64,000 bases of DNA from Escherichia coli O157:H7 (GTDB lineage Bacteria; Pseudomonadota; Gammaproteobacteria; Enterobacterales; Enterobacteriaceae): the NCBI RefSeq assembly GCF_013167455.1, contig NZ_CP038328.1; one strand, given 5' to 3'. Positions within the stretch are counted from its first letter, which is position 1, and the number at the start of each line of letters is the position of its first letter. Positions 8,087-11,232 of the stretch are shown here, piece by piece. The notes under the pieces were generated by a model. It saw only the letters and a program-made list of their open reading frames with translations, was not told where the DNA came from and ran no database searches. Position numbers and translations under genes: made by a program.

Positions 8087-9748
8087 TTATATGAAAAAAA
8101 CCTCATACGCTTTCTTTTTCGGTTCCGGATTCAGGGACATCAGGGACACCGCATTGAAGAGCGCCATCAGCGGGTCAATTTTTCCCCGTCCGCTGGCCTG
8201 TTTGGTGATAAGAATGGCGTTACCTTTAGGCTCCACCCGGGCATTACCGACACACCAGGCCATCAGGGGCTGATCACCGTGAATCAGCACCCCTTCAGCC
8301 AGTTTGCGCTCGGTGGTTTTGATGGCCCCGCCCAGCTTCCAGCCCTGGCTTATCCCCACCACACTCTCATCGGGGATCCCGGCTTCCGCCAGTGAATCCA
8401 GAATCTGCCCCACACCTGACGGGTCAATACCGATATGATCCAGTAACTCAGCCTCATGAATACGACGCACATACTCCGCCACTTCCGCCGTGTCATCCCC
8501 GACCCGACGGACAATCGTCATGTCTCCACAGGCCACAAAATCCTGAAACCGGGATGCCTCACTCTTCCGTCTGACCACCGCGGTTTCATGCACCCAGGCA
8601 TGGCCCCAGCCCAGCCATTCGCGGGTTTCCCTGTCACGGCCAATCACGTACATTCCCAGCAGATCATCCAGGCCCCCGCCGTCAATCCCCACCGTCACCA
8701 CATCAGCGCGCTGCAGGATATCGTCCAGGCTGACGCGCCTGCCCTGCTGCTCCCAGAAATCCGCGCCCGCCCAGCGGTCAGAACGCAGGGCAAGACCGAT
8801 TTCCACATTGGCGTGTTTTGACATGAAGCCACGAAATGCTTCCTCACCAGCCTCCCGGGCTTTACGGTACTCCCGGTACAGAAAGGCCTCATCCACCGAA
8901 TAACCGAGATTCGGGTTAACCATGGCGAGGTTTTCCATCAGCAGGTGAGCCCCGCTTTCCACCATTTCAGGAGGATGCTCAAAAATCACCGGCAGAAAGT
9001 GCGGATCATGAATTTTGCCGTCACGGACATCCCGGGCATACTGCAGTTTCTGTCTGAACACCCCGGCGGGCGGTTCATTCGACTGGGTGGTCGTATACAC
9101 CACAAACCCTTCCGGACGGGAGGCAAGCCCGCCGATGGCTTCACGTAGCATGTCTTCCGCCTTGTACTGCTTGCCAAACAGCCACAGTTCATCAATCAGT
9201 GTCCCCACGGACTTGATACCGGACACCGTATTCGGATCGGCTGCCACCACCTTCAGGGTGGTGTCCGTCACCCGATGGGTGATGGTCCGGATATGTGTCT
9301 GCACCTGACAGAGGTCATCCAGATCATCGTCCCGTCGTACCATATCCCTGGCAGGGTTGAAGGCGTTAGCCGCCACCTCCACGGTCGGGGCCAGAATGGT
9401 GTAGCCCGCCGCCTGCCGCCAGTTCAGTAACAGCGCCGTCATCATGATCCCCGCAGCCAGCGTGGACTTACTGTTTTTCTTGGGGATAAGGATAAACACT
9501 TCCTTGATATGGCGAACACCGGTCTGCGCATCGTAGGAGCCAAACAGGGCCGCCACCAGGTCAAACACCCACGGTGCACAGGACTCCCCGAATGTCGGGC
9601 TACCCGGTGCATCCACAATTCGCAGTTGTTTAAAAATCGCCAGTGCATGTGCAGCCTGGTCCGGATAAATCGGAGCCGGAATAATCGACAGCCCCTTTTT
9701 CAGGCGCTCTGCCCAGTCCGGGCAGGCCGTGCTCCACACAGGTATCAT
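8087..9748 (-). CDS. terminase large subunit
   Basis: 553-aa ORF; 4-nt overlap with terS; position and size typical, sequence resembles HK97-type large terminases. Confidence 0.8.
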   Translation of the reverse strand: MIPVWSTACPDWAERLKKGLSIIPAPIYPDQAAHALAIFKQLRIVDAPGSPTFGESCAPWVFDLVAALFGSYDAQTGVRHIKEVFILIPKKNSKSTLAAGIMMTALLLNWRQAAGYTILAPTVEVAANAFNPARDMVRRDDDLDDLCQVQTHIRTITHRVTDTTLKVVAADPNTVSGIKSVGTLIDELWLFGKQYKAEDMLREAIGGLASRPEGFVVYTTTQSNEPPAGVFRQKLQYARDVRDGKIHDPHFLPVIFEHPPEMVESGAHLLMENLAMVNPNLGYSVDEAFLYREYRKAREAGEEAFRGFMSKHANVEIGLALRSDRWAGADFWEQQGRRVSLDDILQRADVVTVGIDGGGLDDLLGMYVIGRDRETREWLGWGHAWVHETAVVRRKSEASRFQDFVACGDMTIVRRVGDDTAEVAEYVRRIHEAELLDHIGIDPSGVGQILDSLAEAGIPDESVVGISQGWKLGGAIKTTERKLAEGVLIHGDQPLMAWCVGNARVEPKGNAILITKQASGRGKIDPLMALFNAVSLMSLNPEPKKKAYEVFFI

Positions 9749-10308
9749 CCGTTGCCCTCATTATCATTATTCACCACCAGGCGGGGTGGTGGTGGCACCG
9801 CAAAACGGTTAGCCGCTTTTTTCGCCGCGTCACCTTTTGCCGATTTTTTACCGGCATCCCCTTTTTTATGGTGCGTGAACTGCGCCAGCTTATAAGCCGC
9901 ATCCAGCGCCAGCCTGGGGTCGGTATTAATGTTCTCCACCAGAAGACGCCCCATCGCTTTCACCGGATCGGGAAGACCATCCTCCATATATTCAATACCA
10001 GGAGACATCACCGCGGACGGTGGCATCTCCGGATTGTTTTCATCCGGCTGTGGTATTGCAGCCGCCTCACGGCGACGGGGTTTATCCTCCTGCTCTGATT
10101 TTTTCTGCCGGTAAACAGGAACCTCATCCACCTCCACCGTCTCGCATTGTTTACGGGCTATAAACGCAAGCACCTCCGGATCTTTTGCCAGCTGCGAGCC
10201 TTTAACCCTGGCGGTCTTCGCCGAATAACCAGCGGCAATGGCTGACGCTGTTTTGTTTTTCCCGGACATGAGCGCCAGCGCAAATTTTCGTTTTTGCGTT
10301 GTCAGCAC
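9745..10308 (-). CDS. terminase small subunit
   Basis: 187-aa ORF immediately upstream of terL and downstream of the cos-like region; N-terminal MLTTQKRKFALALMSGKNKTASAIAAGYS. Confidence 0.65.
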   Translation of the reverse strand: MLTTQKRKFALALMSGKNKTASAIAAGYSAKTARVKGSQLAKDPEVLAFIARKQCETVEVDEVPVYRQKKSEQEDKPRRREAAAIPQPDENNPEMPPSAVMSPGIEYMEDGLPDPVKAMGRLLVENINTDPRLALDAAYKLAQFTHHKKGDAGKKSAKGDAAKKAANRFAVPPPPRLVVNNDNEGNG

Positions 10309-10597
10309 AGCCTCCTCCCGGGTCCAGAACGCACTCAGCCGGGTATGGTTCAGCCCATTTTTCCCGGCGTCTCATGCCGCAAATGTTAACTGCTGCCTGG
10401 TTAACATTTGCTGAAAAAGCCAGTTAACATTTTTTCCGCACAACAAACTGAATAATAAAGATAAAAACCGCAAAAATGCCCGGACAGCCAGTTAACATGT
10501 TAACTGCCCTGAAACGGGAATTTTTTCTCTGCGTGAGAGGGGGGGCGGTGTCCGGGGCGATCGTTTTTTTCGCCGGATGATCCCCCCCCGGGGCGGG
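10309..10597. other. putative cos / terminase recognition region
   Basis: Five GTTAAC-centred repeats (agccagttaacat twice, aaatgttaac…ggttaacattt inverted repeat) followed by a G/C-rich element gagggggggcggtgtccggggcgatcg…gatccccccccggggcggg; lies between HNH and terS. Confidence 0.5.
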
Positions 10598-10963
10598 TCA
10601 CAGTCCGATGATATCGTCTGCCCTGCCATGACCTCCGGACACCTCCGGCAGCGTCGGGTCCGGCATACCACTCGCCGTTTCACTGACTGACTTCTGGCGA
10701 TGGCATTCGGTACAGAGCGTCCAGAGATTCGTCTCCTCATTACCACCACCGAACTGAAGTGCAATTCGGTGATCGAGTTCACTGTCACAGAGGTCAACCA
10801 CACGACCACAGAGACAGCACTGCCCGGCATCCCTGAGCCAGATACGGCGCTTGAGGGAAACCCGGGCACTACCACTGACCCGACGCTGTTCACCCTTCAG
10901 GACATTCACCCGCCGGGTGTTCAGAGTTTTGATTCTGCCCGGTAACGTACGAAGCACAGCCAT
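10598..10963 (-). CDS. HNH endonuclease (terminase-associated)
   Basis: 121 aa; CCLCGRVVDLCDSELDHRIALQFGGGNEETNLWTLCTECH motif; HNH-cos-terS-terL arrangement as in HK97. Confidence 0.8.
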   Translation of the reverse strand: MAVLRTLPGRIKTLNTRRVNVLKGEQRRVSGSARVSLKRRIWLRDAGQCCLCGRVVDLCDSELDHRIALQFGGGNEETNLWTLCTECHRQKSVSETASGMPDPTLPEVSGGHGRADDIIGL

Positions 10964-11004: not shown

Positions 11005-11232
11005 ATGTCATCGAAAAACCGGACCCGCAGAACAACAACCCGCAACATCCGATTTCCAAACCAGATGATTGAACAAATTAACATCGCTCTTGACCAGAAA
11101 GGTTCAGAAAATTTTTCTGCGTGGGTCATTGAATCTTGCCGCCGGGAGCTGGCAGCAGACATAAAATATGCCCGTCAGTTGACTATAAAAAAGAATGATA
11201 CACAGTATGCTCTGCGATGGCTGTTCATATAA
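11005..11232 (+). CDS. ribbon-helix-helix-like small protein (possibly YlcI/YnfO-like)
   Basis: 75-aa plus-strand ORF opposite to the late operon; RNIRFPNQMIEQINIALDQKG…FSAWVIESCRREL looks like a beta-alpha-alpha fold. Confidence 0.4.
   Translation: MSSKNRTRRTTTRNIRFPNQMIEQINIALDQKGSENFSAWVIESCRRELAADIKYARQLTIKKNDTQYALRWLFI

Follow-up and report, generated by a model that had tools for sequence, protein, structure and literature searches.

In the prophage analysed here, the gap between the HNH endonuclease gene and the terS-terL pair (positions 10309-10597 of the window, by which we mean the entire 64-kb stretch of DNA under analysis; all of these genes lie on the minus strand) carries a dense group of GTTAAC repeats together with two G/C-rich runs. 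The question that it raises is twofold: is this the cos site at which the phage genome is cut for packaging, and which of its elements are read by which packaging protein? We consider the explanation developed below to be, as a whole, very probable: the gap is the cos site of a Stx1a-converting, Pankowvirus-like prophage, with phages 2851, BP-4795 and Lys8385Vzw as relatives. Which DNA is packaged and spread depends on the cos site, and marking it correctly shows where the virion genomes of Stx1a, Stx2c and some Stx2a phages truly end.

The locus and the position of the cut

The gap is framed by the following genes:

10598-10963, minus strand: HNH endonuclease gene (phrog_589, E 5.6e-42; 121 aa, with CxxC...CxxC and HNH)
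9745-10308, minus strand: terS, small terminase (phrog_641, E 2.6e-68)
8087-9748, minus strand: terL, terminase large subunit (phrog_9, E 4.5e-147)
6086-8023: prohead protease-major capsid fusion gene, located after terL

The HNH gene is the last one before the cos site, its 3' end lying 50 nt short of the cohesive end (10547), and its counterparts in sibling phages are labelled as HNH endonuclease or DNase. The segment matches 94 phage records at 95-100% identity, nearly all of them from Stx1a-, Stx2c- or Stx2a-converting E. coli phages and including 2851 (genus Pankowvirus), BP-4795, 1717 and YYZ-2008. Of 5426 complete E. coli genomes, 1243 carry the cos block, at 2941 places in all and with up to seven copies per genome, and in the E. 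coli genomes searched RefSeq has nothing annotated under it. Just upstream of the HNH gene, a small plus-strand gene (11005-11232; 75 aa, phrog_949, DUF3950 in phage 2851) breaks the otherwise one-directional late region.

The cut was assigned by proxy from the sibling phage Lys8385Vzw, whose TerL and TerS are 98.9% and 99.5% identical to those encoded in the window. The GenBank record of this phage ends with ...GGACACCGCCCCCCCT and starts with CTCACGCAGAG (longer start read: CTCACGCAGAGAAAAAATTCCCG), its termini thus lying exactly at the proposed cut, and the phage has been classed as cos by PhageTerm, with 3' cohesive ends of the sequence CGCCCCCCCT (PMC7946995). Both the record termini and the PhageTerm end fall inside the stretch gagggggggcgg that an earlier, sequence-only reading of this DNA had singled out as part of a candidate cos site, and this call is supported. 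By this proxy, terminase cutting of the concatemer leaves the 10-nt 3' overhang CGCCCCCCCT, and the left end of the genome is placed at 10537, from where it runs toward terS. A 3' overhang implies two nicks, which we infer to lie at 10538/10537 on the minus strand (CCCT^CTCA) and at 10547/10548 on the plus strand (GCG^GTGT); the plus strand itself reads GAGGGGGGGCGG at 10537-10548 and CCCCCCCCGGGGCGGG at 10582-10597. The elements around the cut are:

10582-10589, minus strand: G-run GGGGGGGG (gene strand), 34 nt upstream of the bottom-strand nick
10538-10547, minus strand: cosN with the 10-nt 3' cohesive end CGCCCCCCCT (the plus strand reads AGGGGGGGCG)
10507-10537, minus strand: left-end block CTCACGCAGAGAAAAAATTCCCGTTTCAGGG, +1..+31, with an A6 tract at 10521-10526

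The cos site of Lys8385Vzw is essentially the same element, with the same intergenic sequence and all five GTTAAC sites included; the differences are that the window copy is a prophage, its cut placed via the ends of the sibling, and that its G-run counts 8 G as opposed to 7 G in the Lys8385Vzw record. The paper on Lys8385Vzw (PMC7946995) covers the 10-nt end only, whilst the flanking G-run, the A-tract block and the GTTAAC repeats are not described there. Given that the 10-nt end has been published for a near-identical phage and that the HK97 gene arrangement is known, the finding of a cos site at this position is already known; beyond the literature searched lie the anatomy of the core across the family and the association of GTTAA repeats with an SF6-type TerS, which we put forward as reasonable hypotheses drawn from sequence comparison. 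Among the E. coli copies (viral contigs L012-L068), the ninth base of the overhang was seen to vary (CGCCCCCC(C/G/A)T; window position 10539), and such overhang variants could affect the annealing of ends from co-resident prophages.

The conserved core and the terminase proteins

The same kind of cut is found in distant phages:

HK97: ...ATGAC, CGCCGCCAAA, GTTTG; 10-nt 3' overhang
Acinetobacter phage fEg-Aba01: ...GGACAC, CGCCCCCCAT, CGCACGC; PhageTerm plus a heat/cool restriction test (PMC7354433)
Burkholderia phage Bcep176: the 10 nt CGCACGTTCC stand at either end of the record, as a terminal redundancy
Xanthomonas phage Xop411: record starts with CCCATTCGCAG; record start only

When the ends of HK97, fEg-Aba01 and Bcep176 and the record start of Xop411 are aligned with the window, the cut falls in the same register. 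The core of fEg-Aba01 is almost identical to that of the window (GGACAC, CGCCCCCCAT, CGCACGCACAAAAAAAATTCCC), and its ends are experimentally verified 10-nt 3' extensions. This phage also shares the TerS type (51% identity over residues 2-50) and the presence of GTTAA repeats between core and terS, although these are three direct AAGTTAAA units with 11-13 bp spacing instead of the GTTAAC palindromes of the window, and its cut-to-terS distance is 72 nt.

A larger set was compiled from 57 viral contigs sharing the core, 51 prophages obtained via TerS alignment and reference phages, which together gave 52 distinct sequences. The consensus of these 52 distinct loci consists of a G-run some 45-52 nt before the top-strand cut, an ..AAAGT-like sequence, AC, the variable 10-nt overhang, C.CAcgc.cAgA, an A/T-tract and TTCCC; AC stands directly before the overhang, in the same register, in 50 of the 51 loci from the TerS scan. 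An overhang that is variable between lineages and enclosed by conserved flanks is the pattern expected when enzymes read the flanks. On the left-end side, the block in the window is nearly identical in Salmonella FSL SP-016 and in Acinetobacter phages. On the other side, a run of 5-9 G is found at the same distance in the 52 distinct family loci, including HK97, fEg-Aba01 and Bcep176, and is also present in TerL relatives with an unrelated TerS: as the run is kept in HK97 and in these relatives, we tentatively attribute it to recognition by TerL and/or the HNH protein or to a cosQ-like role. The G-run can be described as a conserved upstream cos element, which may be contacted by TerL or the HNH protein or may act in cosQ-like termination.

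The sequence-only reading had likened the two G/C-rich runs to cohesive-end sequences: this is correct for the first, whereas the second (10582-10589) is a separate upstream element and not a hairpin partner of the first. Pairing of the G-run with the C-run of the overhang in a hairpin or cruciform was rejected on two counts, with DNA folding of 10530-10600 giving -13.6 kcal/mol (z = -0.35 versus shuffles) and the C-run not being conserved in relatives that keep the G-run. Among the E. coli copies the length of the G-run ranges from 7 to 13, of which some may be explained by homopolymer sequencing error.

The terminase subunits differ in their affinities. TerL is homologous to HK97 gp2 (BLASTP, 23% identity over 490 aa, E 1e-11), whereas BLASTP comparison of the window TerS with HK97 gp1 revealed no detectable similarity (E 1.2). 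Instead, TerS residues 2-57 correspond to Pfam Terminase_2 (SF6/SPP1 type), and a profile built from four TerS sequences of the family matches the small-terminase DNA-binding domains in PDB entries 4zc3, 2cmp and 3zqp (E 1e-4 to 5e-4): the N-terminal domain is a helix-turn-helix of the SF6/SPP1 type. The combination of an HK97-type TerL cutting machinery with an SF6-type TerS makes this module a hybrid.

The HK97 cos site, with gp74 as HNH protein, gp1 as TerS and gp2 as TerL (PMC9410871, PMC11331095), displays the HNH-cos-terS-terL order of the window, and both systems have a 10-nt 3' overhang and homologous TerL proteins. The upstream side of the HK97 cos site can be aligned with the window (G-run, ATCA, ~32-34 nt, GAC|CGCC). 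In contrast, the left ends differ (GTTTGAATTTAACGCTAACCCGATTTTTTT in HK97 versus CTCACGCAGAGAAAAAATTCCC in the window), and HK97 holds 49 nt and a single mapped TerS site between cut and terS as opposed to 229 nt and five repeats. The earlier claim of an HK97-type arrangement is upheld by the gene order, with the HNH gene directly upstream of cos and terS, and by the gp2-homologous TerL. The likeness to HK97-type packaging holds for TerL, gene order and the 10-nt 3' ends between HNH gene and terS, the last of these by proxy (Lys8385Vzw, fEg-Aba01, HK97), but not for the small terminase, which is not of the gp1 type.

The resemblance to lambdoid phages that had been noted for the cohesive end is likewise partial: a G/C-rich end is indeed present at the cut, but it is a 10-nt 3' end of the HK97 type, produced with an HK97-clade TerL, and not the 12-nt 5' overhang made by a gpA-type terminase. 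The layout of the lambda cos site (cosQ-cosN-cosB, R3-I1-R2-R1) is similar, with an element upstream of the nick, a G/C-rich end, ~150 bp of repeats in two orientations and an A/T-rich spacer before the small-terminase gene. However, lambda uses the gpNu1/gpA terminase family without an HNH protein, and the window lacks the IHF consensus: a consensus scan for WATCAANNNNTTR with at most one mismatch gave no match on either strand of 10300-10600. We conclude that the lambda resemblance is one of architecture, not of ancestry.

From this anatomy we propose that the HK97-clade TerL and the adjacent HNH protein would recognise the flanks of the cut, namely the G-run at 10582-10589 and GGACAC on one side and CTCACGC together with the A-tract on the other, and that each of the two enzymes would nick one strand, the plus-strand nick falling in GCG^GTGT. 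Such a division of labour fits the suggestion made for HK97. Phage HNH enzymes linked to cos sites are reported to nick CG^GT (AC^CG on the other strand; PMC3592412), and the plus-strand nick GCG^GTGT agrees with this specificity, the reference HNH enzymes being only distantly related and from phages of Gram-positive hosts. Packaging would then proceed from 10537 toward lower coordinates.

The GTTAAC repeats and the small terminase

Between the left-end block and terS the following repeat elements are found:

10489-10506: perfect 18-bp palindrome CAGTTAACATGTTAACTG, two GTTAAC cores, +32..+49
10433-10488: A/T-rich spacer (A+T up to 85%) with phased T-tracts, separating the first GTTAAC group from the second
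10418-10430 and 10486-10498: direct repeat AGCCAGTTAACAT, two copies
10421-10430, minus strand: third GTTAAC site, ATGTTAACTG (gene strand), +108..+117
10379-10411: 12-bp perfect inverted repeat with arms GCAAATGTTAAC (10379-10390) and GTTAACATTTGC (10400-10411) separated by N9, holding the fourth and fifth GTTAAC sites

The GTTAAC cores start at 10385, 10400, 10423, 10491 and 10499, which means that five of the 26 GTTAAC sites of the 64-kb window lie within 120 bp. The sequence-only reading had reported five cores in about 130 bp, and the clustering is confirmed by a comparison with random placement of 26 sites over 64 kb (at least five in 130 bp: P ~5e-6). The direct repeat in two copies was also found as described, whilst the inverted repeat is present and perfect but 12 bp in length, not 10 bp. 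Four exact copies of the extended motif ATGTTAACTG are found in the window, each of them within the cos region, alongside one ATGTTAACCA; a dispersed regulatory motif was rejected, as no other exact copy of ATGTTAACTG exists in the 64-kb window.

The terS gene starts here with GTG, preceded by GGAGGAGG and located 229 nt from the cut. In 'short' prophages (Salmonella FSL SP-016 and many from enterobacteria), the same core is separated from terS by 38-39 nt (38-47 nt among the 'short' relatives as a whole), and their terS start GTAAACATGTTAAC aligns exactly with the window palindrome CAGTTAACATGTTAACTG: compared with these prophages, the E. coli Stx lineage possesses ~190 extra bases and a new terS start. 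In related prophages of Salmonella, Enterobacter and Burkholderia, the minimal cos lacks these repeats. Judged by these alignments, the GTTAAC repeats lie downstream of the cut and outside the minimal core, as an extension specific to this lineage, and the first palindrome may be a relic of the ancestral terS start. A minus-strand ORF of 24 codons (10424-10498; MLTGCPGIFAVFIFIIQFVVRKKC) opens at an ATG inside the GTTAAC palindrome, at the position of the terS start of related 'short' prophages; it encodes a hydrophobic peptide and is probably a relic.

Within the 107 nt upstream of terS in 49 distinct loci, taken from prophages of four bacterial orders that share the SF6/SPP1-type TerS, 73 GTTAA/TTAAC motifs are found versus 7.7 expected from the flanks, in a test that ignores kinship and uses loci that are not phylogenetically independent. 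Prophages of Burkholderia, Pseudomonas, Pandoraea and Janthinobacterium carry GTTAATGGCTTTAAC across the terS start codon, and Acinetobacter prophages exhibit independent arrays of 2-6 AAAAGTTAAAG or GTTAAC units. Of five TerL relatives with a different type of TerS, four lack GTTAA-type motifs and HK97 has a single TTAAC; in Vibrio Fayden, Xanthomonas Xop411, Paracoccus Pthi1 and Stenotrophomonas Silvanus, core and G-run are kept with no GTTAA between core and terS. Repeated elements are present between nick site and small-terminase gene, and comparison links them to the TerS type. Some of the TTAAC signal is forced by coding, as terS of the relatives starts with M-(A)-L-T = ATG(GCN)TTAAC. 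Within E. coli, the GTTAAC cores are invariant in 23 distinct variants bar one singleton change, in a set with too little overall variation to prove selection on the cores alone. The 'short' relatives package with only one GT(A/T)AACATGTTAAC site, so that four of the five present here may be dispensable. A literature search for this family found no described cosB or TerS site and no data on TerS-DNA binding, which does not prove their absence.

From this co-occurrence, we suggest that the TerS domain of this family would recognise GTTAA(C) and that the five repeats would make up a cosB-like array. The five ATGTTAACTG-type sites, reaching from +34 to +153, would provide docking positions for the helix-turn-helix domains of an oligomeric TerS, with the A/T-rich spacer allowing the DNA to bend around the TerS ring. 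A broader, modular view of the whole site strikes us as quite conceivable, if falling a little short of probable: the cos site would be a modular hybrid of a core read by TerL and the HNH protein and an exchangeable GTTAA(C) cosB read by an SF6/SPP1-type TerS otherwise typical of pac phages, in which copies would have risen from one to five and which could permit cross-packaging. The core would here comprise the G-run, AC|10 nt|CxCACGC and the A-tract, the HNH protein would make the CG^GT nick opposite the gene strand, and the E. coli Stx lineage would have reached five sites by expansion from the single one that most Proteobacterial prophages carry.

In four enterobacterial 'short' prophages (L072, L074, L075 and L076), a second GT(A/T)AAC motif was observed ~25-30 nt upstream of the bottom-strand nick (...GGTGTAAACGTCGATCG... 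or GTTAACCTCAATCG; the homologous place in the window reads GAAAAAAAC), which would give these prophages candidate TerS sites on both sides of the nick.

Alternative readings and consequences for packaging

The alternative that survives best, although we hold it to be unlikely, accepts the cos site and places the primary TerS site in the A-tract block at +8..+25 (CAGAGAAAAAATTCCC) as in HK97, leaving the GTTAAC repeats as accessory elements or in another role such as terS autoregulation. By position, the A-tract block may indeed be the primary TerS site: the TerS site of HK97 is a single 15-bp element at +15..+29 beside a T-tract, which HK97 TerS binds with the tract included, no part of the left end is better conserved across the family than the A/T-tract block, and the 'short' relatives hold only 38-47 nt between cut and terS in total. 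Autoregulation would agree with the GTTAA pair that overlaps the terS start codon in many relatives. However, TerL relatives with an unrelated TerS (Fayden, Xop411, Silvanus) retain the A-tract block as well, which ties it to TerL and the HNH protein rather than to TerS, and since HK97 TerS is not detectably similar to the TerS of the window, the HK97 binding site cannot be transferred to it.

We consider it less likely again, and improbable overall, that the GTTAAC block is debris: duplicated remnants of the ancestral terS start (ATGTTAAC = Met-Leu-Thr), dating from an insertion or recombination event and with no present function. That the palindrome at +32..+49 lines up with GTAAACATGTTAAC, where terS starts in FSL SP-016 and other enterobacterial prophages, speaks for such an origin, as do the end of similarity right after ATGTTAAC, the 24-codon ORF that still opens at that ATG, and the remaining copies, AA(A/C)ATGTTAAC(T/C)(G/A)G, which resemble the terS start region. 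Yet decay would not preserve two sites as perfect palindromes, the five cores are kept in the 23 variants while the sequence past the last repeat diverges in some of them (L023, L053), the block persists in the 1243 E. coli genomes given above, and GTTAA arrays expanded independently in Acinetobacter prophages. In L023 and L053, the stretch from the last GTTAAC site to terS is far more diverged than the repeat block, and in L053 the TerS frame is shortened to 99 aa; divergence beginning after the repeats suggests a mosaic recombination boundary at this point. A partial match in E. coli TB354, limited to the terS-proximal 55 bp, results from an IS1 truncation and is uninformative.

A regulatory role separate from packaging, with the GTTAAC palindromes as operators of a regulator or as a promoter for terS-terL, is in our view very unlikely. 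Palindromic and inverted-repeat sites are typical of operators, but the confinement of the exact motif to the cos region argues against this use; one promoter-like match overlaps the repeats (10401-10430), but its orientation (plus strand) is the reverse of that of terS, and with two such matches against 1.7 in shuffled sequence they are no commoner than expected. In lambdoid Stx phages, transcription reaches the head genes by read-through from the Q-dependent late promoter. The gene strand of the region revealed no terS promoter and no intrinsic terminator after the HNH gene, and an Rfam search returned no family match, with one chance miRNA match (E 0.95). That the repeats are a pac site for headful packaging as in SF6/SPP1 phages is scarcely credible: the TerS helix-turn-helix domain does match the small-terminase DNA-binding domains of these pac phages, but Lys8385Vzw is a 3' cos phage with defined ends according to PhageTerm, TerL falls in the HK97 cos clade, several family members have defined 10-nt ends, and the mapped, unique ends of sibling and related phages contradict permuted headful DNA, the outcome that the sequence-only reading had set against its own cos call.

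With the GTTAAC array as the putative docking site of TerS, the comparative anatomy points to a defined stretch as the candidate binding site of an SF6-type small terminase in a cos system. As several co-resident prophages, with up to seven cos copies in a single E. coli genome, share cos and terminase type, cross-packaging is possible: if true, the terminase of one induced phage could package co-resident prophages, including defective stx carriers. Marking the cos site also helps in judging which prophages are packageable, an example being the PPompW prophages (PPompW_132418, LC567822.1, L130 1046-2504). In these, ISEc20 (IS110 family) lies inside the cos G-run (window ~10586), flanked by ...TTTCGGGGGGG on one side and GGGGGATCATCC on the other, and the region upstream of ISEc20 holds tRNA genes and Q, without lysis genes and without the HNH gene. 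With the HNH gene lost and an IS in the G-run, PPompW is probably unable to cut its own cos site.
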